Source: Candidatus Poribacteria bacterium
Lineage (GTDB): Bacteria; Poribacteria; WGA-4E; WGA-3G
Length of the DNA stretch: 64,000 nucleotides
NCBI GenBank assembly: GCA_022827625.1
Contig: JAJEIE010000022.1
Span: forward strand, 24,293 to 88,292
Direction of reading: 5' to 3'
The notes under the pieces: generated by a model
Database searches by the model: none
Told to the model about the DNA's origin: nothing
The model's input: the letters and a program-made list of their open reading frames with translations, nothing else
Shown: one piece after another, positions 4,302 through 60,881 of the stretch
Numbering within the stretch: the stretch's first letter is position 1
How the letters are laid out: the number at the start of each line of letters is the position of its first letter
Program-made: the position numbers and the translations under genes

Positions 4302-4303
4302 TT

Positions 4304-5514: not shown

Positions 5515-5641
5515 AGCAGCCGGGGCCACCCATCTCGTGGTTAGGAATGCACGTTGCATGAATCAACGGTATGAATGCCGTGTGGCATTCCCCGGAGCGA
5601 GTACGCTGCAAAACCTCGCCAGCGGTGGCGGGCACGTCCAA

Positions 5642-14924: not shown

Positions 14925-15167
14925 ACGGTAACAAGTTATTGGATCATCTGTGTAAAATTCGTCCCACGCCTTTTCAATATCTGTTTGTGCCCCGGACATG
15001 ATTTCGGGTCTGCTGAGGACAAGCATATCCAGACAATTGTCTCGGCTCGCCTTGCCACGAGCGCATGAACAGGTTAGACAGACGGTTTCGATTTCTGGGA
15101 TTTCGGAGAAGAACTCGACAATCGTTTCAGCTGCGTGCTGATGTTCAGGGGTTGGGTAGTGGTTCAT
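14886..15167 (-). CDS. Small nucleotidyltransferase-fold (MNT-like) protein, possibly degenerate
   Basis: LTCSCARGKASRDNCLDMLVL resembles GSxARGx5SDxDLxV but the acidic residues are partly replaced. Overlaps both neighbours (23 nt and 39 nt). Confidence 0.3.
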   Translation of the reverse strand: MNHYPTPEHQHAAETIVEFFSEIPEIETVCLTCSCARGKASRDNCLDMLVLSRPEIMSGAQTDIEKAWDEFYTDDPITCYRSANSPLNLLEPC

Positions 15168-23421: not shown

Positions 23422-24771
23422 TTACTCCTTGACGTAGCCGGTCGTTCCGTTCGGATTGACCCATTCCGTTTCCCAATGCGTTTCAATCCCCTCGCGCCAT
23501 GCCTGCGCCGCTGCTGTCAGTTCAGCGGTAAGTTCGGGATGTGCGTCTTTCAGATTTCTCGTTTCTCCCATGTCGGTTTCCAGATTGGCGAGGTGTACAT
23601 CGTCTTCGGGTGAAGCCCCTTCAACCAATTGACCGTTGAGAACCAATTTCCAATTATCACGGCGCACGGCGGTCTGCTTGCCCATCTCCCAATAGATTTC
23701 AGGATGCGGTGTAGGTTCACCGTCCACAACCATAGGTAGGACATCCCGTCCATCCAGTTCGTACTCGGATGGATCCCCACCGGCTGCGGCGAGGAAGGTG
23801 GGGAAGATATCCATTGCTGCCCCAATTTCATCAATGACTTGTCCGGCGGGAATCCGTTGGGGCCAGTTCATAATTCCGGGTGAACGGATACCCCCTTCGT
23901 AGAGGCTGAATTTGTGTCCTTTCAATTTACCAGCGGTACCGCCGTAATATGGATCTTGTGTGCCGTCCAACCAGTTTCGGGTTTCCCGCGAGGGACCATT
24001 GTCGCTCTGGAAATAGGAGAAGGTATTTTCTGCGAGTCCAAGCCTTTCTAATTCCGCAAAGATTTCACCGACGCTATCATCCACGGCACTCAGCATCGCC
24101 GCCATAATTTGCCTGTCCCAAGGCAAATCCGGGAAGCGATCGACGTACTTCTGCGGGGCGTGCATCGGATAGTGTGGCGCGTTGTAAGGCACGTATAAGA
24201 AAAAAGGCTGCCCGAGTTCAACTGACTTACGAATGTATTGAATTGCGTATTCTGTAATAAGTTCAGTGAAGTATTCGCCGTTTCGGTAAATTTCCTTACC
24301 GTTCTCCCAGAGGTCATGTGTCTGGTCCATGTCGGGTCGTGCCATTCCCCAATAGAAAATGTGGGAAAAGAAATCAATGCAGCCTGCCATAAACCCGAAC
24401 CAGTCGTCGAACCCGTGGTGCTCCGGTCGTGATCCATCTGCAAGCCCCAAATGCCACTTACCAGACATAGCAGTGTAGTAGCCGCGTGCCTTGAGTGTTG
24501 TTGCGAGGGTCGGAACAGAAGGCGGCAGTCCTGTCGCAGTGCGATGTCCAGCTAAAATAGAGCGGACCCCTGCATGGCACGGGTAGCGCCCAGTTAGCAG
24601 TGAGGCACGCGACGGGGAACAGACGGGTGAATTCGAGTACCAATCTGTGAACCGCACTCCGTCTGCTGCCATCCTATCGAGGTGGGGCGTTTTGAAATCG
24701 GTCGCTCCCATACAGGAGAGGTCCCCGTATCCTTGGTCGTCGGTTAAAAAGATAATAAAATTAGGCTGCAT
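23422..24771 (-). CDS. Arylsulfatase (formylglycine-dependent sulfatase family)
   Basis: LTDDQGYGDLSCMG and CSPSRASLLTGR (CxPxR FGly motif). Confidence 0.9.
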   Translation of the reverse strand: MQPNFIIFLTDDQGYGDLSCMGATDFKTPHLDRMAADGVRFTDWYSNSPVCSPSRASLLTGRYPCHAGVRSILAGHRTATGLPPSVPTLATTLKARGYYTAMSGKWHLGLADGSRPEHHGFDDWFGFMAGCIDFFSHIFYWGMARPDMDQTHDLWENGKEIYRNGEYFTELITEYAIQYIRKSVELGQPFFLYVPYNAPHYPMHAPQKYVDRFPDLPWDRQIMAAMLSAVDDSVGEIFAELERLGLAENTFSYFQSDNGPSRETRNWLDGTQDPYYGGTAGKLKGHKFSLYEGGIRSPGIMNWPQRIPAGQVIDEIGAAMDIFPTFLAAAGGDPSEYELDGRDVLPMVVDGEPTPHPEIYWEMGKQTAVRRDNWKLVLNGQLVEGASPEDDVHLANLETDMGETRNLKDAHPELTAELTAAAQAWREGIETHWETEWVNPNGTTGYVKE

Positions 24772-43735: not shown

Positions 43736-46420
43736 ATGGATTATAATTTTACCACTGTTGCGCGGTTGCCTGCCCCAGACGATAACGTCGGTATCGCTAC
43801 CCAAACACTCGAACGTGGCACACGCATCCGTCATAACGGACAGCAGTTTGAATTATCGCATACGATTTTAGAAGGACACCGATTCGCTATCCAACCGATT
43901 TCAGAAGCTGCCCCACTCCTATCGTGGGGACTGCCCTTCGGTTACGCCACTCGTGCCATTGCCCCGGGCGATTACGTGTGTAATCAGAAAATGATTGATT
44001 CGCTGTCCATTAGAAACCTCCCTTTCGTCCTACCAGAGACTCCCAATTTCAGTGACAAAATGGCACCATACAGGTTAGATGAAGCCGAATTCCGTCCAGG
44101 AAAACAGGTGTCGCGTCATACGAACGAACGCGGTTTCCTCGGTTATCGCCGTCCCGGCAATCGCGGTGTCGGCACGCGAAACTACATCGTTGTTATGGGA
44201 ACAACCTCACGTACTTCGGGTTTCGCGAGAAGACTCGCCGATATGTGTTCAGTGCGTACCGAAGCCTATCCTAACGTAGATGGTGTCGTTGCTGTAACAC
44301 ATACGGAAGGCGGCGAAGGGCGGACGCCGAATAACATTGATATGTTGCTCCGAACGCTTGCCGGTTTCACTGTTCATCCGAACATCGGCGCGATGCTGTT
44401 GGTTGACTACGGTACTGAAGCTGTGACAAACGAGATGCTCCAGTCATACATGCGGCGCGAAGGCTACGCCTTAGACGATGTTGTCCACCACTTCTATCGG
44501 TTACAAGGGAGTTTTGATGCGGATTTAGCCAACGGTGCGGAGATTATTAAGGGGTGGTTGGACAGCGTGAATAGCGTCCCACGCACTGAGCAATCTCTGG
44601 AAAACCTTAAAATTGCCTTACAATGCGGTGGGTCTGATGCCTTTTCGGGTATATCCGGCAACCCACTTGCTGCCTACGTTGCAAAAGAGGTTATCCGTTA
44701 CGGTGGATGCGCCAATCTTGCAGAAACCGACGAACTTATTGGATCAGAGGCGTATGTGCTTCAGAACGTCCGCGACTTGACGACTGCCCGGATCTTCCTT
44801 GACACGATCCAACGCTTCAAGGAACGCGTCTCATGGCATGGACACTCGGCAGAAGGCAATCCGTCTGGGGGTAACAACTTCCGTGGACTCTATAACATCG
44901 CTATTAAATCCATCGGTGCAGCGATGAAACGGCATCCTGATGTCTGTCTCGATTATGTTATCAATTACAGCGAACTGATGGAGAAACCGGGTTACTACTT
45001 CATGGACAGTCCGGGCAACGATTTAGAAAGCATTGCAGGACAAATTGCCTCTGGTTCTAACATGATTTTCTTTGTAACAGGCAACGGGTCAATTACGAAT
45101 TTCCCGTTCGTGCCGACAATTAAAATTGTTACGACGACTGGACGCTATGAGATGCTTACCAAAGACATGGACGTGAACGCGGGTGCGTATCTTGACGGCA
45201 CGCCGATGGAGGAACTCGGTGAAGCAATGCTCGACTTGACGGTGGATGTTGCATCGGGTGAACAGTCGGTCGGTGAGAAAGCCGGACATTCTCAAGTCTC
45301 GTTGTGGCGCGATTGGAAACAGACGGGGCCCGTGGATTTAGACCCGCTGTTGACAGCATCCGAATTGAAGCCCGGCGAACCGATACCCATTGAGACTTTG
45401 GGAGGCGGTGCTGTTAGGAAACCGCACCTACCAAGTCGGGGGGTTTTCCGCGCCCTCCAAACAGAAAATGGATACCGCACGGATCAGGTCGGGTTAATTT
45501 TGCCGACGAGCCTCTGTTCGGGTCAGATTGCGCAGATGATTGCCCACCGTTGCAATGAACAAGAGATCGGTAAAGAACAAGGTGTATCCCGCTTTGTTGC
45601 TCTCCCACATACGGAGGGGTGTGGTGTCTCCAGCGGACGTTCTGAAGAAATTTACACCCGTACGATGATTGGACACCTCACACACCCGACGGTTGCCCTC
45701 GGTCTACTCCTTGAGCACGGTTGCGAAAAAACACACAACGATCACGTCCGACACGAAATTCAGCAGCTCGGTATATCACCAGAACGCTACGGGTGGGCGA
45801 GTGTACAATTGGACGGTGGGATTGATGCCGTTATTGACAAGGTACAAGACTGGTTTTCGGAGTCGCTCGCGAATAAGCCGTCTGTTCCGGTTGTCAATGC
45901 GGGATTAGAACACCTCTGCATCGCTGTAACATCAACCGGTGAAGTGAGGGAAGAAGTCTCGGAGTCTCTGACGCAATTGACGCATAGGGTAGTCGCTGCG
46001 GGTGGAACGGTCATTGTGCCTGCAAACGCGACTTTTTTACGTTACGGCACACGCCGTGTGCCTACTACTTTGGCTTACGGACAAAGGGTTGAAAAGGCGG
46101 GTTTTCACGTCATGGAGAGTCCCACGGATCAGCCGACAGAGACGCTGACGGGATTGGGAGCGACGGGTGTGGATTTGGCACTTGCACATATTGTCGGTGC
46201 CCCGCTGCAATCGCATGTGATGGTGCCGTTGATTCAGGTATCCACAGATTCAGCAACGCGAACCAACTACGGTCCTGATTTAGATTTAGCGACTGCTGAT
46301 GTTGACGAGTTATTGGCGTTGATTGTAGAGGTCGCATCACGACAGTATACGCCGAAACTGCACGGTAAAGGGAATACGGATTTTCAGTTGACGCGAGGGT
46401 TGTTGGGGATCTCGATGTAA
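43736..46420 (+). CDS. Long UxaA/altronate-galactarate dehydratase family protein with a partial internal duplication
   Basis: SAF-like N-terminus (GHRFAIQPI), GYRRPGNRGVGTRNYIVV, QCGGSDAFSGISGNP, FVTGNGSITNFPFVPTIKIV. The extra ~360 aa repeat the Cys-containing subdomain (LPTSLCSG, PHTEGCG, LEHGCE). Confidence 0.7.
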   Translation: MDYNFTTVARLPAPDDNVGIATQTLERGTRIRHNGQQFELSHTILEGHRFAIQPISEAAPLLSWGLPFGYATRAIAPGDYVCNQKMIDSLSIRNLPFVLPETPNFSDKMAPYRLDEAEFRPGKQVSRHTNERGFLGYRRPGNRGVGTRNYIVVMGTTSRTSGFARRLADMCSVRTEAYPNVDGVVAVTHTEGGEGRTPNNIDMLLRTLAGFTVHPNIGAMLLVDYGTEAVTNEMLQSYMRREGYALDDVVHHFYRLQGSFDADLANGAEIIKGWLDSVNSVPRTEQSLENLKIALQCGGSDAFSGISGNPLAAYVAKEVIRYGGCANLAETDELIGSEAYVLQNVRDLTTARIFLDTIQRFKERVSWHGHSAEGNPSGGNNFRGLYNIAIKSIGAAMKRHPDVCLDYVINYSELMEKPGYYFMDSPGNDLESIAGQIASGSNMIFFVTGNGSITNFPFVPTIKIVTTTGRYEMLTKDMDVNAGAYLDGTPMEELGEAMLDLTVDVASGEQSVGEKAGHSQVSLWRDWKQTGPVDLDPLLTASELKPGEPIPIETLGGGAVRKPHLPSRGVFRALQTENGYRTDQVGLILPTSLCSGQIAQMIAHRCNEQEIGKEQGVSRFVALPHTEGCGVSSGRSEEIYTRTMIGHLTHPTVALGLLLEHGCEKTHNDHVRHEIQQLGISPERYGWASVQLDGGIDAVIDKVQDWFSESLANKPSVPVVNAGLEHLCIAVTSTGEVREEVSESLTQLTHRVVAAGGTVIVPANATFLRYGTRRVPTTLAYGQRVEKAGFHVMESPTDQPTETLTGLGATGVDLALAHIVGAPLQSHVMVPLIQVSTDSATRTNYGPDLDLATADVDELLALIVEVASRQYTPKLHGKGNTDFQLTRGLLGISM

Positions 46421-47892: not shown

Positions 47893-47920
47893 TGATAGCC
47901 AATAACCGACAACTAATGAC
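47893..47920. repeat. Tandem heptanucleotide tract (4 units) at the 3' end of the giant surface-protein gene
   Basis: tgatagc caataac cgacaac taatgac. Confidence 0.65.
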
Positions 47921-50900
47921 TATTTGCGTATCAGCATCTTACGTGTTGCCGTGAAATCGCCTGCGGTGAGGGTATAGAAATAGACTCCACTTGCGACAGG
48001 TTCACCGAATACATTTCTGCCATCCCAATAGGCGGCACGGCTGCGGGTCTGATAGGTTCCCGCGGGTTGATGTCCTAATACCAACCTTCTAACGACTTGT
48101 CCATCTATAGCGTAGACAGTGATCATAACCTCAGCAGGTTTTGCAAGTTGATACGGTATCCACGTCTCTGGATTAAACGGATTTGGGAAGTTTACCAAAA
48201 GCGCGTTTTCTCTAATTGCTGTAACGGTTACTTGCGCGGTGAGTGTCGGACCGCTATATCCTGCGATAGCATCTGATCCGACAGTGAAGGTAAGCACGCC
48301 ATCGGTATTCATATCTCCATCAAATTCAAGTTCAACAGTGATTTGTGTGTCACTTTTTCTGTCAGGTTCGTGCCAGGGTATTGTTACGCCGTCAATACCA
48401 GAGACAGACACGGCACCTCTGATGTCAAAGGTGGAACGTGCGTATTTTCTACCGCTGAGTGTGAGCGTGATGACGCTGCCATCCAGGGTCGCCTCTGTCA
48501 AGGGAGATTCTGTTGACGCGACGAGCGATTCATGTTCTCCGCTAACAGGTATCTGTGCGGTGAATGCCGGACCGTTGTATTCCGCGATAGCATCTGATCC
48601 AACAGTGAAAGTGAGCATGGCATCAGCATCAAGGTCGCCATCAAATTCAAGTTCAATAGTGATTTGTGTGTCGCTTTTTTTGTCAGGCTCGTGCCAAGGT
48701 ATTGTTACGCCATCAATACCAGAGACAGACACGGCACCTCTGATGTCAAAGGTGGAACGTGCGTATTTTCTACCGCTGAGTGTGAGCGTGACGACGCTGC
48801 CATCCAGGGTCGCCTCTGTCAAGAGAGATTCTGTTGATGCGACGACTGATTCCTTACTGCCAGTGACAGGGAGTTGTGCGACCAATGCGGGTCCGTCGTA
48901 TCCAGCCACGGCATCCGCTCCCACGGTAAAGGTGAGTGTGGTATCCGTGTCAAAATCGCCCTTGAAAGTCAATTCAACCGTCAACTCCGTATCGCTGACC
49001 CGGTCTACATCAAACCAGTGAACAGTGACACCAGCAATACCAGAGACCGCCACAGCATCTCTGAGATCGAAGGTAGATCGTTCGTAAGTGGCACCGTTGA
49101 GCGTGAGTGTGATGATGCTCTCATTCAACGTCGTTTCTGTTAAGGGGATAGGTGTTGATGCGACAACCGATTCCTTACCCCCGGTAACAAGTATTTGTAC
49201 AATTAGGGCGAGTTCCTCGTATCCCGCTATAGCATCCGCCTCTATAGTGAAGGTCAGCGTCGCACCGGTATCAAAATTGCCATCAAACGCAAGTTCAACT
49301 GCAAGTTCTGTATCACTGATACGCTCCACCCCAGACGTTTTAATAGTCACACCGACAATTCCCGACACAGTCACAGCATTTTCGATGTCAGCGTTAGATT
49401 GCACATAAGTCGCGTTGTTGAGCGCCAATAAGATGACACGCCCATCAAGGGTTGCTTCTGTAATGGGCTGCGGCGTTAGAAGCGTGAGTGTCGGTCTTTC
49501 TTCGATAACGGCGGTGACAGGTATTTCCGCGGTGAGTGGGGCCCCGTTATAGGCAGCGATTGCGCTTGGTCCAACCCTGAAAGTGAGTGCGGTGTCGGTG
49601 TCAAAGTTTGTACCGTCAAATGCTAATTTAACGGTCACTTGTGTATCACTGAGGCGCATTACATGCGAGTGAGGAAACGTAACACCGGCGATGCCGGATA
49701 CTTGCAGCGCACGGCTGATGTTAGAAATAGATTTCGCATATACACCGCTCGCCAGCGTAAGTGTGACAACACTTTCATTCAGGATTGCCTCTGTCAAGGG
49801 TCGTGGTGCGAAGGCAATAATGATCGGGTGCTTCTCTGCAACGGCGGTGACAGGTAATTGCGAGACGAGCTCGGCACCGTTGTATCCGATCACGGCATCC
49901 GCACCGACCTTGAAGGTGAGTGTCGCATTAGTGTCAAAGTCTGTCCCATCGAACATCAATTTGATATCCACCTGGGTATCGCTGATGCGTTCTACGTTAA
50001 ATCTATCAACCGTGACACCCGTAATGCCTGACACCGTCACGTTATTTCCGACAGTGTGGGGAGATTCGTAGGTTCTACCGCTTAATGTCAGTGTGACCAC
50101 ACCTCTGTTCAGCGTTGCCTCTGTTAGCGGCGCGATTGGCGAAGCGTTCACCGATTCAGTAACCGCAGTGACAGGTGCAGTCGCGGTGAGTGCAGGCCCG
50201 TTGTAACTCGCGATGGCATCCGCTTTGACGCTGAAGGTGAGGGTTGCGTTAGTGTCAAAGTCCGTCCCGTCAAATGTTAGCTGGACTGCCAATTGCGTAT
50301 CGCTCTTACGCGCTACATTGAAAGGTTTAACGGTTACGCCAGGAACACCCGTTACCGTTACAGAATCATTGAGCCAACTTTCATAGACTCGATTGTTCAA
50401 CTTTAGTGTCACTATGCTTCCATTTAGCGTAGTCTCCTTTAAAAGTTGTGAAGTCAACGCTATGGTTGGACTTTTTTGATCGTCCATGTCAATAACCTCA
50501 ACAGTAACAGCAATGGTGTCGGTGAGGTTCCCATCGGAGACAGTGACCTTTACGGTATAGGAGTGCTTGGTTTCGTAGTCAAGGGCAGCAAGGGTTCTCA
50601 ATTGCCCAGTTGTGCGGTCAAGATGAAACGCTGCCGCATCGGGACCGCTGAGGGTATAGGTTAGAGAATCGTTGTCGGGATCGGTCGCCGCTATCGGCTC
50701 GCGGATGTTCACCCCTCTCAGTGTATTCTCGGCTACTGCGCGACCGGTGTACCCACCATCTATGAAGCTCGGTGGGCTGTTTGTAGGTACTTCGACCACT
50801 ATATTAACAACAGTAATAATAACCGCGACTTCATCTATCAAACTGCCATCAGAGACAGTGACAATTACGGAATAGGAGGCTTTGGTTTCATGATGGAGTG

Positions 50901-52179
50901 CTGCCTTCGTTTTCAACTGTCCAGATGTACTATCAATGTCAAACGATGCTGCGTCAATACCACTTAGATGATAGGTGAGCGGCTCATTGTTGGCATCAGT
51001 AGCAACAATCGGACTCCCGATACTTACGCTTGCTGCTGTTTTCTCTGCCACCGTGCGTGTGATAACGGAGCCTTCGGTGAACACGGGTGCTTTGTTGATT
51101 GCCCATCCCATATCTTCAAGCATACCCAATGCAATAGGACCAGGGTCGTGAATGGCTTCTTGTTTGTCAAAATATGGTGTCATCAACGAATTAACATCGC
51201 CAGCCGGAAATATTGTCTCATCCAAGTGGGCGTACCCTGACCCTCTATCCCAAGTACTGGGCGCGTAAAGTTGTGGATGTCCGCCACCGTTTGCTGCAAC
51301 GCCCTTCGCGCCGCTCCAAAAGAGATTGTTACTGGTAAACTGTTCCAGCAGACGCTCGGATGGATCCCGAAACTCCGTGATAGCCGTCCCGGATCCATTG
51401 ACGACAAAGACATCATAAATATGAGGCAATTCAGGAACGCCGCCCCTCAGCTTACCCCGAACAGTAGAGAAAGAAGAAAAGGCTCCCATTGGAGAATCTT
51501 CCGCCCTGGCAGTACTAAAAAAACCGAGGCCGTGCCCAATCTCATGTATCACGACACTCACGAAGTCCATTTTACCGGCAGGTGTGTTGCCATCTGTGCC
51601 AAAATACCAATTGGCATCTTCGTGGCTGTTGAATCGGGTAATGATGTCCGGTTCACCCGCTTCCAGATTTCTGCCAGCCCTCTTATCAGCAAGGGCATCA
51701 ACGAACCACAGATTCAAGGATCCGGGTGATTTCCAGCCTGCTGGATAAGCACCCCCCAAAATAATCCGTCCGTCCTCATATCCACTGAAGTCCGTAAAAG
51801 TTGCGTCAATCCGGATGGGTACAGGCGACCGGATCAGCGAGTTCCAAATATCAACCGCATATTGGAACGCCAGCCTTGCTTCGTCTGTAAAACCCGTATA
51901 GGTTACCGTAAACTGCGGCTGTCCCATCCTAAAGTGATGCTCGCGTCCAGACAATTTCTGCCTCGGTGGTGGAAGACTTGTACCGGCATTTTCTTTGGTT
52001 CCATATAAAATAATCATCGGAATCCCTTCATTCTGATCCATTGGGTTTCCTGCTGACTGATTTTTAGATGTTACAGAGGGTTGCCCTTGGACTTCAATTC
52101 GGCTCATGACACGAGATCTCGGTCCAAGTAGCAAGTAAATAGAAAAGGAGAGTATGAATAGAATTTTGGCAAATTTCAT
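47920..52179 (-). CDS. Giant secreted surface protein: zincin metalloprotease-like domain, 2 cadherin repeats, 7 copies of a ~106-aa repeat, and a Por_Secre_tail/FlgD-Ig-like C-terminal domain
   Basis: HEIGHGLGF (leishmanolysin-like HExxHxxGF). Cadherin-like ATDANNEPLTYHLSGIDAASFDIDSTSGQLKT and ATDPDNDSLTYTLSGPDAAAFHLDRTTGQLRT. C-terminus FPNPFNPETWIPYQLA...YWDGRN...GEPVASGVYFYTL...ATRKMLIRK. Confidence 0.8.
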   Translation of the reverse strand: MKFAKILFILSFSIYLLLGPRSRVMSRIEVQGQPSVTSKNQSAGNPMDQNEGIPMIILYGTKENAGTSLPPPRQKLSGREHHFRMGQPQFTVTYTGFTDEARLAFQYAVDIWNSLIRSPVPIRIDATFTDFSGYEDGRIILGGAYPAGWKSPGSLNLWFVDALADKRAGRNLEAGEPDIITRFNSHEDANWYFGTDGNTPAGKMDFVSVVIHEIGHGLGFFSTARAEDSPMGAFSSFSTVRGKLRGGVPELPHIYDVFVVNGSGTAITEFRDPSERLLEQFTSNNLFWSGAKGVAANGGGHPQLYAPSTWDRGSGYAHLDETIFPAGDVNSLMTPYFDKQEAIHDPGPIALGMLEDMGWAINKAPVFTEGSVITRTVAEKTAASVSIGSPIVATDANNEPLTYHLSGIDAASFDIDSTSGQLKTKAALHHETKASYSVIVTVSDGSLIDEVAVIITVVNIVVEVPTNSPPSFIDGGYTGRAVAENTLRGVNIREPIAATDPDNDSLTYTLSGPDAAAFHLDRTTGQLRTLAALDYETKHSYTVKVTVSDGNLTDTIAVTVEVIDMDDQKSPTIALTSQLLKETTLNGSIVTLKLNNRVYESWLNDSVTVTGVPGVTVKPFNVARKSDTQLAVQLTFDGTDFDTNATLTFSVKADAIASYNGPALTATAPVTAVTESVNASPIAPLTEATLNRGVVTLTLSGRTYESPHTVGNNVTVSGITGVTVDRFNVERISDTQVDIKLMFDGTDFDTNATLTFKVGADAVIGYNGAELVSQLPVTAVAEKHPIIIAFAPRPLTEAILNESVVTLTLASGVYAKSISNISRALQVSGIAGVTFPHSHVMRLSDTQVTVKLAFDGTNFDTDTALTFRVGPSAIAAYNGAPLTAEIPVTAVIEERPTLTLLTPQPITEATLDGRVILLALNNATYVQSNADIENAVTVSGIVGVTIKTSGVERISDTELAVELAFDGNFDTGATLTFTIEADAIAGYEELALIVQILVTGGKESVVASTPIPLTETTLNESIITLTLNGATYERSTFDLRDAVAVSGIAGVTVHWFDVDRVSDTELTVELTFKGDFDTDTTLTFTVGADAVAGYDGPALVAQLPVTGSKESVVASTESLLTEATLDGSVVTLTLSGRKYARSTFDIRGAVSVSGIDGVTIPWHEPDKKSDTQITIELEFDGDLDADAMLTFTVGSDAIAEYNGPAFTAQIPVSGEHESLVASTESPLTEATLDGSVITLTLSGRKYARSTFDIRGAVSVSGIDGVTIPWHEPDRKSDTQITVELEFDGDMNTDGVLTFTVGSDAIAGYSGPTLTAQVTVTAIRENALLVNFPNPFNPETWIPYQLAKPAEVMITVYAIDGQVVRRLVLGHQPAGTYQTRSRAAYWDGRNVFGEPVASGVYFYTLTAGDFTATRKMLIRK
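48215..50480 (-). repeat. Coding tandem array: 7 copies of a ~318-bp unit (~106-aa domain)
   Basis: Consensus LTEATL(D/N)xSxVTLTLxGxxYxxS...AVxVSGIxGVTV...VxRxSDTxxTVELxFDGDFDTDxxLTFTVGADAIAxYNGPALTAQxPVTA. The two 3'-most units are offset by exactly 318 bp. Confidence 0.85.
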
Positions 52180-52229: not shown

Positions 52230-55200
52230 TTACTTAAGAATAACCATCTTGCGCGTGGCGGAATAATCCCCGGCGATCAGAGTGTAGAAGTAAACACCAC
52301 TCGCTACTCTATCGCCGCCCTCATTCCTACCATCCCAATAGATTGCTTTCGATCGACTCTCGTAGACTGAGGCGGTTTGGTGCCCAACATCCAACCTACG
52401 GACGATGTGCCCACGCGGGTCGTAGATCGTCAACGTGACGAAACCATCTTCTGCCAACCGATACGGTATCCAAGTCTCAGGGTTAAATGGATTTGGATAG
52501 TTCGGCAGCAGTTCGGTCTCCTTCGGAACCAATACAGACAGGAGTTGTTGTAAGAAAAAGATACCTCTTTGCCACCCCGGATCCGTCAGGTCTGAACCCT
52601 GCGATTGGATCAGCCATTCCCGGATGTCAGCAGCGGTGAGAAGTGAAAGTGCATCGGGATGTAGTACGGGTGCTGCCGGTACCTGATTAATTGCACTCGC
52701 CACTTTAATCAAGTCAAGGATACTGACCACGCCATCGCCGTTAACATCTGCGCTGTTTGGCCCAGATTGCCCGAAACGCCCAGCAACGAACACCAAGTCA
52801 AGAACGTTCACCACCCCATCCTGATTGGTATCATATTCGCCAAACTGTGAAGCGATATCGTTGATGATGATTCCAACACCTGGGGAACTGATGTCGTTTT
52901 CATCCCCGTAATAGGTGCGCTGATCCGTTGTTAAATTGGCATCCACGGCGGTAACCCAAGAAGCTGCTTGTGTGCCATCACGTGCCACACCATTGACATA
53001 ACGACGAATGAGTGAAGTCCGATTACCCGCTCTGGTTCTACCTCTGTTAAAACTGTAAGGTAAGTCCCAAAGCGTCTGACTTCCGTCGTAATTCCCCGCT
53101 TCATCCACCAAATTACCATCTTTATCGGTCAACCTTATGTGGAAACCTTCCCCACTCAGCCACGTAGTCCAGAAACTAATGTCTACGCTGCCTTTTCGCG
53201 CGCCTTCTATCCACCTGAGATCGTAAATTTGGTCCTCCATAAAGCCACCTGAGTTGTCATCACTGCTGGACGTCACTATCAAGAGAAAGTCATTTGGCCA
53301 TATCCGTGGCGCGTCCTCAAAAGTAGTGTCCCTAAACTTGATGCTCAGGGTCTGCGGTCCGAGCAGGTCCTCCGAGTCCACATTCTGGACAGTCAATGTC
53401 CATCCAGTGAGATCAATTGGCTTTGTTCCAGCATTGAATATCTCTATCCATTGCTTTGGTGTAAATCTTATCTCCGAACCATACATGATTTCACTGATGC
53501 TAACTTCACCCCCTACCGTACCAGGTTGAGGTGTTTCGTCCACAGTCGGTGGTGTCTCATCTACATCAATGATAGTGATAGCGACAATGATAGTATCGGT
53601 GTGAGTGCCATCGGAAACGTCGACGGTCACTGTATAGGCGTTTTTCGCTTCAAAGTTGAGCGGTGCGTGCGTTTTCAACTGTCCAGTGATGCTGACGATG
53701 CGAAAGGCTGCGGCATCCGTACCACTGAGTGTATAGGTCAGCGTGTCATCATCCGCATCTGTCGCAGATACCGGACTGCCAATGTTTACACCCGAAGGGG
53801 TGTTCTCGGCTATCGAACGCGTCGTCTGATTCCCCGTAAAAACCGGCGCATGCGTCTGTGGCGTCTCGTCCACCTCAGGAATGACAGTACCCTCAATGAC
53901 TGGCACAATAGCCTCGTTCTTGTCAGTGACACTTATAGTAACACCGATAGTGTCGGTGCCGCCATTGCCATCGGAAACCAAGATTGTCACCGAGTAGGCA
54001 TCCTCGGTTTCATAGTCGAGAGGTGTCCGGGTTTGTAACTGACCAGAACTCCCCACAACGCCAAACGCTGCGGCATCTACACCACCGAGAATGTAGGTCA
54101 AAGTGTCGCCATCCTCATCTGTCGCAGATACGGGGCTGCCAATGTTTACACCTGCCCCCGTGTTCTCGGCTACAGACCGCGTTGTGCTATCGCCCTCTAC
54201 GAAAATCGGATCATCGTTCTCGTCAGTGACACTGATAGCAACACCGATGGTATCGGTGCCGCCATTACCATCGGAAACCAGGATCGTCACTGCGTAAGAG
54301 TCTTTGGTTTCATAGTCCAGTTCTGCTCGGGTTTGTAACTGACCAGAGGTACCGATAATACCAAACGACGCTGCATCTACACCACCGAGCGTGTAAATCA
54401 AGGGATCGCCATCCTCATCTGTCGCTGACACTGGCGCGCCAATATTGACACCCACAGATGTATTCTCGGCTACAGACCGCGTTGTGCTATCGCCTTCTAT
54501 GAAAATCGGATCCTCATTTTCATCAGTGACATTGATAACAACGCCGATAGTGTCGGCACCACCCCTACCATCAACAACCGTAACCACCACTGAGTAGGTG
54601 TTCCGTGTTTCATAGTCCAGTTCTGCTCGGGTTTGCAGCTGCCCCGTCGTCCCGACAATGCCAAAGGATCCTGCATCTGCGCCACTGAGACTATACGTCA
54701 AGATGTCGTCATCTTCATCAGTCGCAGCTACGGCTCCCCCTATGTTTACACCTGCGAGCGTGTTCTCTGCTACTGAACGCATCGCGCTGCTGCCCTCTAT
54801 GAAAATCGGGGCATGGTTCACATTAGGTTCATAGTTAGGACGTGGGATACCCAGAGCAAAAATGAGCGAGTTATCACCCCCTACAGCACTCGGTTCAAGG
54901 AGACTATAGCCGTAATGTCCGGTAGGTAATGCTGGCAAAATGACAATATCCACGGCGATAGGATCCGACGTGCCAGGCGTGCGAGTCACCGTGAGCGGTT
55001 GGCTTTCTACACTGCCAGCGGGGATCTCTATAGTGGTTGCTCCCCCATCAATAGTCCCATTCACAACACTCAGCGGCAGAACAATATTAAAGGGAGCACC
55101 AGTGGGTACAATTGCTTTGAATTGGTTATCTTCAATCTGTTCTAAAGACACAGTAATGGATAGGTTAACTGCGTTGTTCCCTAAGTAAAATGAACGTAAC

Positions 55201-55922
55201 GAGGATATGTCTGAAAAGATACCGGCGGGCAAACTGCTTAATTCGTTGAAAGACAGGCTCAGCCAATTCAGCGATGGGAGCCCAGAAAAGATATCAGTAG
55301 GCAAATCGCGGAGCTGATTAGAAGACAAGTTAAGCGTGTTCAATGAGGAAAGCTCAGAAAAAGTGTCCGCAGGTAGGCTGCTTAACTTGTTGTAAGATAA
55401 ATTAAGTGTCCTTAAGGCGGAAAGCCCGGAAAAAATCCCTGCGGGCAAACTACTGAGTTGGTTGAAAGATAGACTCAGCCACTCCAGAGAAGAAAGCTCA
55501 GCAAAGAGGTCCGCAGGCAAGCTGCTCAACGCGTTGTTCCCCAAGTCAAGCCGATTCAGGGAAGATAACCCGGAAAAGAGGTCCGCTGGTAGCTGACTCA
55601 GATTGTTTCTATATAGAGCCAGCGAATTCAGCGCAGTCAATCCATCGAGATCGCCGGCTTTCAGTGCTGTAATATTCTGGTCGCTCAGATTAAGGTTAGT
55701 AATCAAAGCCAGATGCGCTGCGGTCACATCCTTGCAATCATCCACCCCAGGTACTATTGCTACAATTGCATCTCGGACTTGGGGTGTCCGATCACAGACC
55801 GGAGTGAACACGGGAGGGTTTTCTCCCAGCTGCCCGTAGCTTGTACTTTGTATGCCATATATTAACAATATTACAATGATAACTGATACTACGATTTTTC
55901 GATTCAGGACCGACGTTTTCAT
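52230..55922 (-). CDS. Giant secreted surface protein: LRR, 5 cadherin repeats, lamin tail domain, dockerin, Por_Secre_tail/FlgD-Ig-like C-terminal domain
   Basis: LRRs (LxxLxLxxNxLSSLPADxFSxLSSL, about 8 units). Cadherin repeats (ATDEDDDILTYSLSGADAGSFGI...GQLQT etc.). LTD ISEIMYGS...KQWIEIFNAG...LTGWTL. Dockerin DTNQDGVVNVLDL...DVNGDGVVSILDL. C-terminus NYPNPFNPETWIPYRLA...YWDGRN...VASGVYFYTL. Start trimmed to the ATG at 55922. Confidence 0.8.
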   Translation of the reverse strand: MKTSVLNRKIVVSVIIVILLIYGIQSTSYGQLGENPPVFTPVCDRTPQVRDAIVAIVPGVDDCKDVTAAHLALITNLNLSDQNITALKAGDLDGLTALNSLALYRNNLSQLPADLFSGLSSLNRLDLGNNALSSLPADLFAELSSLEWLSLSFNQLSSLPAGIFSGLSALRTLNLSYNKLSSLPADTFSELSSLNTLNLSSNQLRDLPTDIFSGLPSLNWLSLSFNELSSLPAGIFSDISSLRSFYLGNNAVNLSITVSLEQIEDNQFKAIVPTGAPFNIVLPLSVVNGTIDGGATTIEIPAGSVESQPLTVTRTPGTSDPIAVDIVILPALPTGHYGYSLLEPSAVGGDNSLIFALGIPRPNYEPNVNHAPIFIEGSSAMRSVAENTLAGVNIGGAVAATDEDDDILTYSLSGADAGSFGIVGTTGQLQTRAELDYETRNTYSVVVTVVDGRGGADTIGVVINVTDENEDPIFIEGDSTTRSVAENTSVGVNIGAPVSATDEDGDPLIYTLGGVDAASFGIIGTSGQLQTRAELDYETKDSYAVTILVSDGNGGTDTIGVAISVTDENDDPIFVEGDSTTRSVAENTGAGVNIGSPVSATDEDGDTLTYILGGVDAAAFGVVGSSGQLQTRTPLDYETEDAYSVTILVSDGNGGTDTIGVTISVTDKNEAIVPVIEGTVIPEVDETPQTHAPVFTGNQTTRSIAENTPSGVNIGSPVSATDADDDTLTYTLSGTDAAAFRIVSITGQLKTHAPLNFEAKNAYTVTVDVSDGTHTDTIIVAITIIDVDETPPTVDETPQPGTVGGEVSISEIMYGSEIRFTPKQWIEIFNAGTKPIDLTGWTLTVQNVDSEDLLGPQTLSIKFRDTTFEDAPRIWPNDFLLIVTSSSDDNSGGFMEDQIYDLRWIEGARKGSVDISFWTTWLSGEGFHIRLTDKDGNLVDEAGNYDGSQTLWDLPYSFNRGRTRAGNRTSLIRRYVNGVARDGTQAASWVTAVDANLTTDQRTYYGDENDISSPGVGIIINDIASQFGEYDTNQDGVVNVLDLVFVAGRFGQSGPNSADVNGDGVVSILDLIKVASAINQVPAAPVLHPDALSLLTAADIREWLIQSQGSDLTDPGWQRGIFFLQQLLSVLVPKETELLPNYPNPFNPETWIPYRLAEDGFVTLTIYDPRGHIVRRLDVGHQTASVYESRSKAIYWDGRNEGGDRVASGVYFYTLIAGDYSATRKMVILK

Positions 55923-56035
55923 AATAAACTCCATTTTACGGTTTTCGATTGCGAGATCCAATCAGATTCTTAGACAGAAACATGGCAGTGTGCCATCTTC
56001 TATCCCTCCATTTTATCATATTTATTTGATAAATG

Positions 56036-57733
56036 TCATTTTCTTATTACCATCTTGCGTGTGGCGGTGAAATTGCCTGCTATGAGTGTGTAGAAATAGA
56101 TGCCACTTGCCACAGGTTCACCGAATGCGTTTCTGCCATCCCAATAGGCAGCACGGTTGCGGGTCTGATATATACCCGCGGGTTGATGCCCGAATGCCAA
56201 CGTTCTAACGACGTGTCCATCTATGGCGTAGATAGTGAGTGTGACATCGGCATCTTTTGCTAAGTGATACGGTATCCATGTCTCCGGATTGAACGGATTC
56301 GGATAGTTTGCCAACAACGCTGTCTCTTTTGGTGTCAATGCTGCGAGGAGTTGCTCTAAGAACAGGACCCCTCTTTGTGAAGTTGCGTCTGTTAGGTTCA
56401 GCTGCTGTGCTTCAGAAATCCACTTTTTGACATCCGCAGTGGTGAGAGTTGATAGCACTTGAGGATTCAGGGACGGTGCAGCAGCAGCGTTGCCGAGTGC
56501 TCCAGCGACCTTGACGAGATCTCTAATATCAACAACACCGTCGCCGTTGACATCTGCGGTGTTTTGCCCTGCCTGCCCGAGATTTGCAGCAACTAACACG
56601 AGGTCTTGGATGTTTACACTCCCATCACCATTGACGTCTGATGCAATCCGCGAGGGTTTGTCTTCCATTCGTGGAGGGTTCCCTGTGTTCGTAGAAGTGG
56701 TAAAGTCAGCCTCGTCAAGATAGATTTTAAAGAACATTCCCCAATTTCCTGAGTACTCGCTGACTTTAACTAAGAGGAGGTTGTTGCCGGCTTTCAGTTG
56801 TGTGTCGAACCGATTTTGGATGCCCGTTGTTCTCCTGCTGGTTTTCCTTCTGAAAACTACCGTTCCATTGAGCCAAACCTTGACAGAATCATCACTCCCC
56901 ACACCCATTTTCACATTATTTTGATCGCGCGGTGAGACAATGTTAATAAGGGCATAAGCCGTATAGTTACTGAGATTCTTAACTGTGCTGAGCCCAGCTG
57001 CATTTACGACATGCTGGACATTATTTGAGGCACAGAGGAACCAGCCGCAGTGGGTGGAAGGATAGATGCTCTCGCTCGTCCATTGTAATTCGTCTAAAGT
57101 ATCTCCCGCGTTTACACCCTCTTGAGCAACTTGGGTTTCTGTAATCGCGCCATCACTTAAGTGTTCGAGATAATCTATATCTATATCTGAACCTGGCGCG
57201 ATCATCCAGAGCCAGGGGCCTTGGAGATAGTCATACGTCGGAGGCAGCTCTGTTTCCTCTGGCTCCTCTTTTGGGGTATCCTGCTCGTCCTCTGGTGACT
57301 CCTGCTCCATTGATGCCGTCACGGGTATTTGCGCGGTAAGGGCGGGGCCGTTGTATTCTGCTATAGCATCCGTCCCCACGGTGAAGGTCAGGATGGAATC
57401 AGTGTCAAAATCGCCTTCAAATCCCAGTTCAACGGTGATTTGCGTATTACTTATACGATCGACGCCAAACCATGCGGGTCCGAACGTGCCAATCGTTACA
57501 CCAGGAATACCGGACACATCCAAAGCATTTCCGATATGGATTTCAAATCTTTCCCAAATGTGCCCGTTGAGTGTAAGTGTGACAATACTCTCATCTAATG
57601 TCGCCTCGGTTAATGGGGATGCAGCGGACGCGGTTAGGATCTGGGCATAAGTAGTGCCCTGCACACCGAGTAATAACAGGACTATTATGAGAATTGGAGT
57701 GATACTCTTGCAACTCATAATTTTGATTCGCAT
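56036..57733 (-). CDS. Secreted surface protein: 1 copy of the ~106-aa repeat, beta-sandwich (PA14/galactose-binding-like) domain, dockerin, Por_Secre_tail/FlgD-Ig-like C-terminal domain
   Basis: LTEATLDESIVTLTLNG...FEGDFDTDSILTFTVGTDAIAEYNGPALTAQIPVTA; GSDDSVKVWLNG...LLLVKV; DVNGDGSVNIQDL...DVNGDGVVDIRDL; NYPNPFNPETWIPYHLA. RBS AAGGAG before the ATG at 57733. Confidence 0.8.
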   Translation of the reverse strand: MRIKIMSCKSITPILIIVLLLLGVQGTTYAQILTASAASPLTEATLDESIVTLTLNGHIWERFEIHIGNALDVSGIPGVTIGTFGPAWFGVDRISNTQITVELGFEGDFDTDSILTFTVGTDAIAEYNGPALTAQIPVTASMEQESPEDEQDTPKEEPEETELPPTYDYLQGPWLWMIAPGSDIDIDYLEHLSDGAITETQVAQEGVNAGDTLDELQWTSESIYPSTHCGWFLCASNNVQHVVNAAGLSTVKNLSNYTAYALINIVSPRDQNNVKMGVGSDDSVKVWLNGTVVFRRKTSRRTTGIQNRFDTQLKAGNNLLLVKVSEYSGNWGMFFKIYLDEADFTTSTNTGNPPRMEDKPSRIASDVNGDGSVNIQDLVLVAANLGQAGQNTADVNGDGVVDIRDLVKVAGALGNAAAAPSLNPQVLSTLTTADVKKWISEAQQLNLTDATSQRGVLFLEQLLAALTPKETALLANYPNPFNPETWIPYHLAKDADVTLTIYAIDGHVVRTLAFGHQPAGIYQTRNRAAYWDGRNAFGEPVASGIYFYTLIAGNFTATRKMVIRK

Positions 57734-57880
57734 GAGAAACTCCTTTAAGTTCGTTTTCACCACAATCTCCTTCTTGGTAAACGTTTGGAATCTTACGCTC
57801 ATTCTCTGATCCTTCAAGAGCTTGCAGCAATTGTAGGAGGGATGTAACCATTTCCGCAAAAAACACAGAATTTTCCGTTT

Positions 57881-58942
57881 CTATAACGGTAAGGAGATCG
57901 GGGCACCGATTTGGGAGGAACGATACGTCGCCTCTGCTAACGCAATACCATCTCTACCGATACGTCCATGCGTTGTTGGCTCCGCCTCACCGGCGATGCA
58001 CTGGAGCCAATGATCGATGCTTGTGCCTTTCGCTGCGACTCCCCAATATCGCTGCTGCCGCCGTTCCGCTGGCATATTGCGATAGGTGTCGTCGTCTGGG
58101 ACCGGTGCTGTGAACTCTTCTGCGTCTGCCATATCGTGCGTTTTCCAACGGAGACCGTGCCGAATCAGCGTCGCGGAACCTTTGCTCGTGACGAGACCGT
58201 TTCCACTATTTCCGATCTCAGCCGCCCAACTTTTAATCATCATTCCGACACCGCCGTTCTTGAAATGCACTGTTAACACGGCGTTGTTCTCAACGGCTTC
58301 GTCAGGTGGCGGATAGGTGCCGCCGAGTGGGACATGGCTTGTAAACCCATAGACAGTAGAAGCGGGACCATAAAGCCATAACCAGATATCGAGATTGTGG
58401 ATGGCTTGCTCCACGAGCATACCTCCAGATTCTGCCTTGACGAAGAGCCACGGGTGTCGTTCCGGTGAGAACCAACCGACCTGATTGGAATACGCCATCT
58501 GCAGCGTGCCGAGTGTGCCATCGTCCAATAGCGATTTCAGCTTCATGTACCCCGGATCGAACCGCATCATATAGGCGACCATCAGGAGAACACCCGCATT
58601 TTCAGCAGCGGTTATCATTTCGTCCCCTTCTGCGACGTTGCAGCACATCGGCTTCTCTATCAAGATGTGTTTGCCAGCATCGGTCGCAGCACGGGTAATT
58701 TCAAGGTGCGGACGCGGATGGGCACAGACATCCACTGCATCTATATCCTGCCTGTCGAGCAGCGCGCGGTAGTCTGTATAGGCATCTGCTCCGAACAGGT
58801 CCGCTTGTTCACTCGCAGATGCTTCATTGATGTCAGCAATCGCGACAATGTCTGCGCGTCGTGTCAATTCTTGGTAATAGGGTGCGTGGAGGTTGCGGAA
58901 AATACCGCCACATCCGATAATACCAACTCTAAGCTTATCCAT
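57881..58942 (-). CDS. Gfo/Idh/MocA family oxidoreductase
   Basis: MDKLRVGIIGCGGIFRNLHAPYY Rossmann N-terminus, EKPM motif; RBS GAAGGAG. Confidence 0.85.
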   Translation of the reverse strand: MDKLRVGIIGCGGIFRNLHAPYYQELTRRADIVAIADINEASASEQADLFGADAYTDYRALLDRQDIDAVDVCAHPRPHLEITRAATDAGKHILIEKPMCCNVAEGDEMITAAENAGVLLMVAYMMRFDPGYMKLKSLLDDGTLGTLQMAYSNQVGWFSPERHPWLFVKAESGGMLVEQAIHNLDIWLWLYGPASTVYGFTSHVPLGGTYPPPDEAVENNAVLTVHFKNGGVGMMIKSWAAEIGNSGNGLVTSKGSATLIRHGLRWKTHDMADAEEFTAPVPDDDTYRNMPAERRQQRYWGVAAKGTSIDHWLQCIAGEAEPTTHGRIGRDGIALAEATYRSSQIGAPISLPL

Positions 58943-58985: not shown

Positions 58986-59738
58986 TCATTGCCCGTCCCC
59001 ACCACGGAATGTATCAACCACTTTAAGAATAGGAGGTTCCGCCGTATCCTCTAAGAGCGCGAGTGCTTCGGCGATGATTGCGTGCTGCAATTCTGGGTTG
59101 TTCGGTTCACCGAGTGGATGCCCGAAACCATACGGTACTGCTAACGCGCGCGGTGATCTTACCTTCCTCGTAATATCTTCAATCAGCGTAATTGAGACTG
59201 TAGAAATTCCTGCTGCTTCAACAGCACGTTGTATCAGCCCCACGGACTGATTGCACATCGGTCAGACAGGGGTTAAAAAAGCAACGTCTACACCATCAGT
59301 TTTCAGCATCCGTCCGACCTCAGGCGCGAATTGCGTAATCAGACGGTCTGGTTTTGTAATGGACCCCATAAAACTGAAATGTCTATGGTTTAGCGATCCG
59401 ACTTTACCTTGGGTCTCTAACTCCTTGAATCTGTCAAGTGGAAACGCGAGATTTGGATCCGTTTCGAGACCGCGTTCATCGTAAGCCGCACTTTTATGTC
59501 CATTTATGAGGGCTTGTATTTGAATTGAATTGGGAATTTCGCGGTAGGAACAATCTCCGTTCCCAAAGGGTTCCTGTCCATCGAGAAAAAAACCGGCGGT
59601 TGTAATAAGCGCGACTTTACATTCAGGCAACGGCAAACGTAAAGGTGTGTGAGGCGTCGTTTCATAGTGCTTGCCGCGGTAAAGTTTCATAAAGAATCGA
59701 GAAAGGGAATCAAGTTTACGTAAGGGTGCCATACACAT
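58986..59738 (-). CDS. Glycine/sarcosine/betaine/D-proline reductase B-type (GrdB/PrdB-family) selenoprotein, UGA-Sec at 59262-59264
   Basis: Track ORFs 59262-59738 and 58986-59258 share one frame, separated by TGA plus CCG. The joined product (250 aa) reads ...VDVAFLTPV-U-PMCNQSVGLIQRAVEAAGISTVSITL...; UxxC motif; family-like blocks KVALITTAGFF and AFPLDRFKELE. Confidence 0.75.
59233..59251 (-). promoter_or_regulatory. Candidate bacterial SECIS hairpin
   Basis: Minus-strand RNA AUCAGUCC-GUG-GGGCUGAU (8 bp including one G.U) starting 11 nt after the UGA; G/U-containing apical loop. Confidence 0.5.
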
Positions 59739-59744
59739 CTCATA

Positions 59745-60770
59745 TTAGCCGTTTGCGAAGATGAGCCGTTCCCTATTTTCACACGGGAGCTGTATCGTCT
59801 GGCCGGTGATGCCGCTCTCAATCGTAGCAAATCCAATTTCGTTGACAGCAGTATAATCATCACGCGCACAGTGCGGTACGGGTCCGCCATCCAAGTAATC
59901 CGTAATCTGTTTATACGCAACTTTGAAGGGACTGGCGTTTTCAGGCAGATCGAGCGTAGCATTATCAACCAACTTTCCTTCTTTATGGACGGTTGTGCTG
60001 CTATAGAATCCCGTCTGAACGCTCCCCTCACTGCCGAGAACATCCACAGAAAATCCGCCGCGCGTCCCGTGATTCCCGACATGGAAACCGATAACGCCGC
60101 TTTCATATTGAATGGTTGAACCGACAATCGCAGGTTCAGGTTCATAAGGCTCCGGTACATCTCCACTCCCTTCAACAAACCCTGTTACCGAAATCGGATC
60201 ATAACCGGCAAACTGACAAATCATATCTGTCGTGTGGATAGCGAAAGAGAGGATACCACCCCCACAATACCCGATGACAGTCTGCACCTCACCGATGAGA
60301 CCATCACTGATAAGCGATTGGAGACGGACGAGGTGTGGTCCCCAGTGACGTGTATAGTCAACAACGATTGGGATACCTTTTGCGTCAGCACCTGCGGTCA
60401 TAGCATCGACTTCTTGAAGCGAACATCCAGCGGGTTTTTCGAGGAAAATGGCTTTAATGTCTGCCTTCAAGACGTTCTGCATTACCTTGAAATGGTGCGG
60501 TCCGCGGACGCAGACAGCCACGATGTCTAAATTTTCACTTTCAAGCATCTGCGTATCTGTTTCGTAATAGTTTATAGAATTGTCTGGGAAAGCGGGTCCC
60601 CACACCTGTTGGAATTCTGCTTGGCGGTCCGCAGACATATCTGCAACTGCGACCAATTCAGTCGTTTCACAAAAACGGATACCGCCTGTATGGCAATAGG
60701 GATAAGCGTCGTCTGGTGTTGAATAACGGGAGGCGATACTGCCTAACCCGATGATACCGACACGATACAT
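59745..60770 (-). CDS. Gfo/Idh/MocA family oxidoreductase
   Basis: MYRVGIIGLGSIASRY Rossmann N-terminus, EKPA motif. Start trimmed to the ATG at 60770; stop is 6 nt before the selenoprotein ATG. Confidence 0.85.
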   Translation of the reverse strand: MYRVGIIGLGSIASRYSTPDDAYPYCHTGGIRFCETTELVAVADMSADRQAEFQQVWGPAFPDNSINYYETDTQMLESENLDIVAVCVRGPHHFKVMQNVLKADIKAIFLEKPAGCSLQEVDAMTAGADAKGIPIVVDYTRHWGPHLVRLQSLISDGLIGEVQTVIGYCGGGILSFAIHTTDMICQFAGYDPISVTGFVEGSGDVPEPYEPEPAIVGSTIQYESGVIGFHVGNHGTRGGFSVDVLGSEGSVQTGFYSSTTVHKEGKLVDNATLDLPENASPFKVAYKQITDYLDGGPVPHCARDDYTAVNEIGFATIESGITGQTIQLPCENRERLIFANG

Positions 60771-60881
60771 TGGCACTGCTCCTTTTTGAACGTCTTTAAT
60801 GTCATAGTATAGCAAAAGGATTGTAGCAGGTAAAGGATTTTCTTATCATTGAAATAAGTTATCGATTAAGAAAATGTTGCT

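Follow-up and report, generated by a model that had tools for sequence, protein, structure and literature searches.

A probable selenocysteine codon within a PrdB-like gene of Candidatus Poribacteria annotated as two reading frames

When two open reading frames (ORFs) follow each other in the same frame and are parted by little more than a TGA, do they represent two genes or a single gene with a recoded stop codon? This question is raised by a locus on the minus strand of a 64,000-nucleotide stretch of contig JAJEIE010000022.1 from a Candidatus Poribacteria bacterium (the whole stretch is called the window below), where ORFs of 158 (59262-59738) and 90 (58986-59258) amino acids share a common frame, the gap between them consisting of the TGA and one CCG proline codon. 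An earlier note, made from the sequence letters, had proposed that both ORFs form one selenoprotein of the GrdB/PrdB family and that a hairpin resembling a selenocysteine insertion sequence (SECIS) lies just behind the TGA. On the sequence evidence presented here, we put at roughly 0.93 the probability that the segment from 59738 (or 59732) to 58986 is one gene encoding a selenocysteine (Sec)-containing protein of ~250 residues, which belongs to the GrdB/PrdB superfamily and, within it, to a stand-alone PrdB-like subfamily.

One reading frame across an internal TGA

Read from 59738 to 58986, the minus strand contains a single frame of 250 codons in which the TGA at 59264-59262 is the sole internal stop; what the earlier note had said at sequence level about the two ORFs, their shared frame and the TGA and Pro codon between them holds in full. 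The codons after the TGA are CCG (Pro), ATG (Met) and TGC (Cys), and read-through would yield ...VDVAFLTPV-U-PMCNQSVGLIQRAVEAAGISTVSITLIEDI..., with AFLTPV-U-PMCNQSVGLIQR as the junction of the fused protein. The putative Sec residue, U159 (59262-59264, minus strand), would be the first residue of a U-P-M-C motif, the codon of the second redox residue, C162, lying at 59253-59255 on the same strand. Among the 29 junctions in the window at which a TGA joins two open stretches, the one at 59262-59264 is the only one found in a redox-motif context. The terminal stop of the gene is also a TGA (58988-58986), located 91 codons past the recoded one, so that the same mRNA would hold both and UGA would serve in the source organism as a stop as well as a recoded codon. 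Terminal stops are mixed among 82 homologues (TGA in 32, TAA in 26 and TAG in 24). At the other end, translation may in fact begin at the ATG of 59732-59730 rather than at 59738, because nearly all the listed orthologous products of 156 amino acids begin with MAPLRK, two codons after 59738.

To find relatives independently of the Sec codon, we scanned genomes, one per species, for the peptide LNHRHFSF. This yielded 80 loci, 43 of them from Poribacteria and the rest from Blastocatellia, Terriglobia, other Acidobacteriota and metagenome-assembled genomes (MAGs) labelled Heliomicrobium or Clostridia. The aligned codon is TGA in 79 of the 80 loci and TGC in the remaining one (L053). In every locus the frame past this codon stays open for 82-99 codons, and TGA, TAA and TAG terminate it about equally often. 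Comparison of the Poribacteria loci with the window gave 414, 293 and 1412 differences at codon positions 1, 2 and 3 downstream of the TGA and 253, 241 and 944 upstream of it, with amino-acid identities of 82% and 81%, respectively. This third-position bias and the similar identities show the two halves to be under the same purifying selection.

Protein databases contain more than 115 clusters with 73-100% identity to this protein, almost all of them 156 amino acids long (a few have 142-173) and ending in ...FLTPV; the clusters that carry a name are assigned to Candidatus Poribacteria. One protein of 253 residues from a soil metagenome (P0118) is full-length, aligns end to end with the fused frame and shows VCPMCNQS at the junction. 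Both P0118 and L053 are Cys forms, reading V-C-P-M-C where the gene studied here reads V-U-P-M-C. The wider family was explored by searching P0118 against cluster representatives at 50% identity, which returned 2,079 clusters at E ≤ 0.001. In the best 150 of these 2,079 clusters, 51 representatives end just before the Sec column, 29 are fragments and 70 cover the column; the residue of the latter is Cys in 51 cases, Ser in 7 and another one in the rest. The point raised by the earlier note, whether homologues have Sec or Cys in the U column, is answered by a TGA in nearly all the loci, a TGC or Cys in L053 and P0118, and a Cys in most of the representatives covering the column.

Profile searches, for which U was replaced by C in the fused protein, treat the two halves as a unit. 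NCBIfam TIGR04483 (D-proline reductase PrdB) matches residues 30-233 with positions 20-222 of its 238 (E 2.3e-45, 154.9 bits) and TIGR01918 (glycine/betaine/sarcosine/D-proline reductase selenoprotein B, various_sel_PB) matches residues 84-230 (50.0 bits). Both run across residue 159, which provides the match spanning the two halves that was expected for a single gene. When the Sec column is equated through profile coordinates, U159 falls at approximately position 149 of TIGR04483 and position 349 of TIGR01918. Pfam GRDB (PF07355) recognizes the fused protein with 35.8 bits and the N-terminal fragment with 37.7 bits, above its gathering threshold of 22, and its match extends as far as residue 156, which is model position 345 of 347; two further residues precede Sec. 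The isolated C-terminal ORF of 90 residues has no Pfam match, and a Pfam thioredoxin match of the fused protein was discarded as noise (E 0.12). That gene callers would split such a gene, as the earlier note foresaw, can be seen in a 99%-identical relative, annotated as a product of 156 amino acids with a GRDB match and another of 90 amino acids without any Pfam match.

The position of the residue also agrees with what is known of the family. UxxC appears in published tables as the Sec motif of PrdB and GrdB (PMC1088965, PMC2398784, PMC9312934), and the Sec of Clostridioides difficile PrdB is U151, replacement of which by Cys inactivates the protein (PMC11229817). The Sec position in B-type reductases that the earlier note had given is in accordance with these motifs, with U151 and with the profile coordinates. 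Considering the bridging profiles, the end-to-end alignment with P0118 and the same layout in 79 loci, we annotate 58986-59738 (minus strand) as a complete, putative PrdB-like selenoprotein gene of 250 codons including Sec159.

A stem-loop behind the UGA

The mRNA can form the hairpin AUCAGUCC-GUG-GGGCUGAU (59251-59233, minus strand), with a stem of 8 bp and an apical loop of 3 nt, GUG (59243-59241), located within the codons for N-Q-S-V-G-L-I. There are 10 nt between the UGA and the hairpin, the stem beginning at the 11th, and this spacing matches that of Escherichia coli, where a minimal upper stem-loop ~11 nt from the UGA is required. The hairpin is present in the minimum-free-energy fold. 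As SECIS we understand, following published usage, a stem-loop just after the UGA with an apical loop of small size that includes a G (PMC1088965).

The evidence that this hairpin goes beyond chance is comparative, since its stability alone is not significant. Using a gap-free alignment of 80 TGA-bearing sequences, we found 88% of the cells in the hairpin to be paired, compared with 77% after shuffling and 20-56% after sliding of the partner columns, and the observed covariation score was reached by none of 500 shuffles. The most informative positions are those where the code leaves a choice. At pair 18-28, which joins the third position of a Gln codon and the first position of a Leu codon, GC (37), GU (19) and AU (18) occur without a single mismatch; the choices are synonymous on both sides, and if each were made independently of the other, one would expect ~9 A·C mismatches. 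Pair 19-27 is UA in 38 sequences and AU in 32, a Ser→Thr replacement being offset by a synonymous GGA→GGU change, and pair 15-31 is UA in 48, CG in 13 and GC in 6. The apical loop reads GUN or NGUNG, with G22 and U23 invariant. The hairpin cannot form in the DNAs of the Cys forms (L001/L002, for P0118, and L053), which encode N-Q-S/A-S-D-L-I instead of N-Q-S-V-G-L-I. None of 4227 Rfam families matched the hairpin, around which the hits were noise (E above 1), and no family passed its gathering threshold anywhere in the window. The SECIS-like hairpin of 8 bp with a GUG loop described in the earlier note is, therefore, recovered in the minimum-free-energy fold, at the expected distance from the UGA and with covariation across 80 sequences, and its identification as a bacterial SECIS is supported by these comparisons.

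We propose that the UGA at 59264-59262 would be read as Sec during translation and that the hairpin at 59251-59233 would act in the mRNA as a SECIS recruiting SelB·GTP·Sec-tRNA(Sec) by the established bacterial mechanism, the tRNA being charged through SelA. The gene for this selenocysteine synthase is in the window (selA, 12239-13678, minus strand), as the earlier note had pointed out and as matches to Pfam SelA (E 9.3e-156) and Se-cys_synth_N confirmed. It is the only component of Sec insertion found there; ARAGORN detected no tRNA gene in the window and no tRNA-Sec in 84 related loci. SelA and SelB co-occur in most bins of sponge symbionts, where they are enriched (PMC5649159), and a Sec-containing variant of [NiFeSe] hydrogenase has been reported from Poribacteria (PMC13582414). 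The selA stop is overlapped by 4 nt by the gene of a protein with an FGE-sulfatase domain (11406-12242, minus strand; FGE, formylglycine-generating enzyme), with which selA may be co-transcribed and which is an unusual neighbour for it.

Genes around the locus

The selenoprotein gene lies between two genes for oxidoreductases of the Gfo/Idh/MocA family, all three on the minus strand. Six bases (59739-59744) separate its start at 59738 from the stop of the upstream gene (59745-60815; Pfam GFO_IDH_MocA), and the downstream gene (57881-58942; Pfam GFO_IDH_MocA and C-terminal domains) starts 43 nt past its stop. In a simple consensus scan the promoter-like sites all lay upstream of 60815 and none of the gaps between the genes showed a terminator, with counts not above chance. 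The three genes probably form an operon, with the 59745-60815 gene first, in which the selenoprotein gene is co-transcribed with its two neighbours. The gene order is conserved in the 99%-identical relative and in most Poribacteria: an orthologue of the upstream gene is found on the same strand in ~40 of the 43 loci, immediately adjacent in ~31 of them, and one of the downstream gene, with 78-95% identity, in ~39 of the 43. Five of the Poribacteria loci (L025, L030, L031, L032 and L034) have ~3.2 kb of extra sequence between the upstream oxidoreductase and selenoprotein genes (at about 2800-6000 of these loci).

Outside Poribacteria the surroundings are different. The acidobacterial neighbours, identified by eye from N-terminal sequences, are variable and include RecX-like proteins, methyltransferase, amidase, IspG, acetyltransferase and permease, and the Cys forms are accompanied by a PHO4 transporter and a pyridine-nucleotide-disulfide oxidoreductase, or by a sigma factor. 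Beside one Cys form (P0121), two overlapping calls of 280 (Pyr_redox_2) and 195 (Pyr_redox_dim) amino acids in L083 (6731-8136, minus strand) look like the two parts of one pyridine-nucleotide-disulfide oxidoreductase, whose split could stem from a frameshift, a faulty assembly or a further recoding site.

The other genes of the window, among them those for a Cu/Zn superoxide dismutase, sulfatase(s), formylglycine-generating enzymes and leucine-rich-repeat (LRR)/cadherin proteins with sorting tails, suit a Poribacteria-like symbiont that lives aerobically and degrades polysaccharides. Genes on the minus strand at 47920-52179, 52230-55961 and 56036-57859 encode secreted proteins of very large size in which LRR, cadherin and lamin-tail domains occur; these are eukaryote-like adhesins typical of sponge symbionts. 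The products of the latter two genes have a near-identical C-terminal tail (…NYPNPFNPETWIPY…TLTIYD…), and the counterparts in a relative resemble Pfam FlgD_ig/Por_Secre_tail. A sulfatase gene is found at 23422-24771 (minus strand) and, at 36042-38090 (plus strand), a protein with an FGE-sulfatase domain is fused to BNR/sialidase-like repeats. Three further ORFs have unusual architectures. The 893-residue protein encoded at 15145-17826 (minus strand) combines matches to multihaem cytochromes (Cytochrome_C554, MtrC/MtrF domain) with a long TPR array. The ORF at 19880-20611 (plus strand) unites nucleotidyltransferase and HEPN domains, more often found as a two-gene toxin-antitoxin pair. The 894-residue ORF at 43736-46420 (plus strand) carries altronate/galactarate dehydratase domains in its first ~530 residues only, its C-terminal ~360 residues having no Pfam match at E ≤ 1e-8.

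Competing explanations and possible function

Several observations weigh against our interpretation. The fold of 66 nt has a z-score of -1.7 and 11 of 200 shuffles were as stable, which makes its thermodynamic stability alone unremarkable. Part of the covariation, at pair 19-27, corresponds to one split between two clades and may reflect a single event, because the pattern largely separates Poribacteria from Acidobacteriota. Neither selB nor selD nor a tRNA-Sec was found in the 64-kb window (Pfam scans of ~40 ORFs; ARAGORN). The placement in the superfamily is loose, the 154.9 bits of the TIGR04483 match being about half of the equivalog cut-off of 300 and the 50.0 bits of the TIGR01918 match falling under the curated cut-off of 65.45. 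Finally, the link with the Gfo/Idh/MocA enzymes rests on synteny within one phylum; we rejected a family-wide linkage, given the unrelated neighbours of the acidobacterial and Cys-form homologues.

The strongest of the alternatives is that the protein is a genuine PrdB, serving as B subunit in D-proline reductase or in a related reductase that depends on pyruvoyl, with the gene of a PrdA-like partner in another part of the genome. TIGR04483 is indeed the best family match, covering 203 of 238 profile positions, and the size of ~250 amino acids and the UxxC motif are those of PrdB (PMC1088965, PMC11229817). We nevertheless consider this unlikely, with a score so far from the cut-off. Pfam scans of the ~40 window ORFs detected no Gly_reductase/PrdA/GrdE pyruvoyl proprotein, GrdA or PrdC-type protein, and no PrdA-like partner was evident in the inspected neighbourhoods of the Poribacteria, Acidobacteriota or Cys-form loci. 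Moreover, the Cu/Zn superoxide dismutase, the sulfatases and the secreted adhesin-like proteins suit an aerobic heterotroph, not a Stickland fermenter.

A comparison with the characterized families leads to the same view. The PrdB of C. difficile and Clostridium sticklandii (TIGR04483) has ~240-250 residues, is homologous over nearly the full length, carries its Sec as the first residue of UxxC (U151, against U159 here) and has its SECIS within the coding region. It differs in that no prdA (pyruvoyl proprotein), prdC, prdD, prdE, prdF or prdH gene is found near the gene described here, which is flanked instead by those of Gfo/Idh/MocA oxidoreductases, and in that its hosts ferment amino acids anaerobically, whereas the gene here belongs to an aerobic, Poribacteria-like symbiont of sponges. 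GrdB, GrdF and GrdH (PF07355, TIGR01917/01918) share the C-terminal catalytic region (profile ~272-421), with Sec at the homologous place, two residues beyond which the Pfam match falls short. However, GrdB is a protein of ~435 residues, of which ~270 are an N-terminal extension with respect to the 250 residues here, its motif is UxxCxxC (PMC13188914), whereas U-P-M-C-N-Q-S lacks the third Cys, and the 64-kb window contains no grdA, grdE, grdC or grdD. The classification as a GrdB/PrdB-family selenoprotein made in the earlier note can thus be maintained for the superfamily but not for GrdB or PrdB proper. Because it scores under both curated cut-offs, has no third Cys and no PrdA, GrdE or GrdA gene in the window, the protein is, judging from its sequence, neither a bona fide PrdB nor a bona fide GrdB but a stand-alone PrdB-like UxxC selenoprotein. 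Nor is it likely to serve as B subunit in a classical D-proline or glycine reductase, since no gene for a pyruvoyl proprotein or GrdA accompanies it in the window.

Other explanations concern the decoding of the UGA. Near-cognate decoding or an altered genetic code might place a standard residue (Trp, Cys or Gly) at this codon. UGA-C is a leaky termination context, and a C follows the UGA in all but one of the 79 loci. Such decoding is very improbable, as the same gene ends in TGA, as do 32 of the 82 homologues, and UGA is thus a stop in these genomes. In addition, the covarying hairpin at the canonical SECIS position and the presence of selA point to Sec, and by its profile position the residue corresponds to the catalytic Sec in a family of selenoproteins already known.

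Still less probable is that the TGA is a true stop which separates an N-terminal protein of 156-158 residues from an independent one of 90, even if gene callers annotate precisely these two products and an ATG occurs two codons past the TGA in 65 of the 80 loci. The codon matching this ATG is TTA, CTA, CTT or ACC, which cannot start translation, in 11 of the 80 and, therefore, an independent downstream gene cannot be general. The spacing of two codons and the frame are invariant across phyla, the full-length Cys homologues are single polypeptides and profile HMMs treat both halves as one domain. The same holds for the AlphaFold2 model of the Cys homologue P0118 (built from an alignment of 40 sequences), which is one compact α/β domain spanning both halves, with a mean pLDDT of 95.1 and a pTM of 0.93. 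The earlier note had named a real stop with two independently conserved genes as the pattern that would speak against it; with 11 of 80 loci lacking a possible start codon and third-position bias on both sides of the TGA, we did not observe it. A pseudogene, or a sequencing or assembly error creating a spurious stop, has nothing in its favour beyond the internal stop itself and is already refuted by the comparative data, with an identical TGA in 79 independently assembled genomes of at least two phyla and purifying selection on both sides.

In the P0118 model, C161, which aligns with Sec, is predicted in a loop between a strand (154-158) and a helix (164-177), a strand-to-helix junction being the usual setting of redox CxxC/UxxC motifs. 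Selenoproteins of the thioredoxin fold with UxxC/CxxC motifs (Trx-like, Prx-like, DsbA-like) resemble the protein in having this motif at the N-terminus of a helix after a β-strand and in the interchange of Sec and Cys, but their fold is unrelated. A sequence search of the PDB retrieved no solved relative of PrdB or GrdB in the copy searched, and Foldseek comparison of the model with the PDB gave nothing significant (best E 0.02, TM 0.32); the fold adds, therefore, no functional information.

By analogy with PrdB and GrdB, the selenol of Sec159 would be the attacking nucleophile, with C162 resolving the adduct by formation of a selenenylsulfide, making the protein a putative stand-alone PrdB-like selenol/thiol redox enzyme. 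A functional partnership with the two Gfo/Idh/MocA enzymes is plausible in Poribacteria, where these NAD(P)-dependent oxidoreductases may, speculatively, supply the substrate or reducing equivalents. A more daring idea, to which we give rather low odds, is that the selenoprotein is the catalytic core of a reductase without PrdA/pyruvoyl. The flanking Gfo/Idh/MocA enzymes would take the place of the pyruvoyl partner: their oxidation of a sugar-like or amino-sugar substrate could create a carbonyl, which would activate the carbon next to it, so that the selenol could attack there and a C-N, C-O or C-S bond could be cleaved reductively. If true, Stickland-type chemistry would have an aerobic relative linked to carbohydrates, and one of the most abundant selenoprotein families of the ocean would gain a function.

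In the Sargasso Sea data, "proline reductase PrdB" (pfam07355, UxxC) came third in abundance among the known selenoprotein families, with 42 genes (PMC1088965), and it was also one of the most frequent in Global Ocean Sampling (GOS), where 235 Sec and 110 Cys forms were counted (PMC2398784). Likened by its published description (Zhang, Fomenko and Gladyshev 2005; Zhang and Gladyshev 2008), this ocean family shares with the protein studied here pfam07355, the UxxC motif, the existence of Sec and Cys forms and an origin in marine, largely aerobic communities, and most probably the two fall into one broad group of PrdB-like proteins that stand alone. The ocean studies list counts but say nothing of function or gene context. 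In the searchable literature we found no function for this family outside clostridial proline reduction, no paper on what the stand-alone form does, and no description of members in Poribacteria or Acidobacteriota, of their SECIS or of the position flanked by Gfo/Idh/MocA genes; for PrdB-like or GrdB-like proteins, only papers on fluoroacetate in Synergistota surfaced. Given the published counts and the names that NCBI already assigns to several truncated Poribacteria products, the kind of object is known. What is new is its membership in Poribacteria and Acidobacteriota, a SECIS supported by covariation, the systematic mis-annotation as two ORFs and the Poribacteria-specific place between Gfo/Idh/MocA genes.

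For annotation, this means that close Poribacteria entries, and likewise many Acidobacteriota loci, are stored as a shortened product plus an orphan ORF of 90 amino acids, and that the protein regains its catalytic UxxC centre and its C-terminal third once the halves are merged. Selenoprotein specialists will not be surprised by such a result, which soundly corrects an annotation and gives a modest lead on a long-known family. The conserved position between Gfo/Idh/MocA genes in Poribacteria offers one concrete, testable lead to the function of the protein, and the finding supports an active use of selenium by sponge symbionts.

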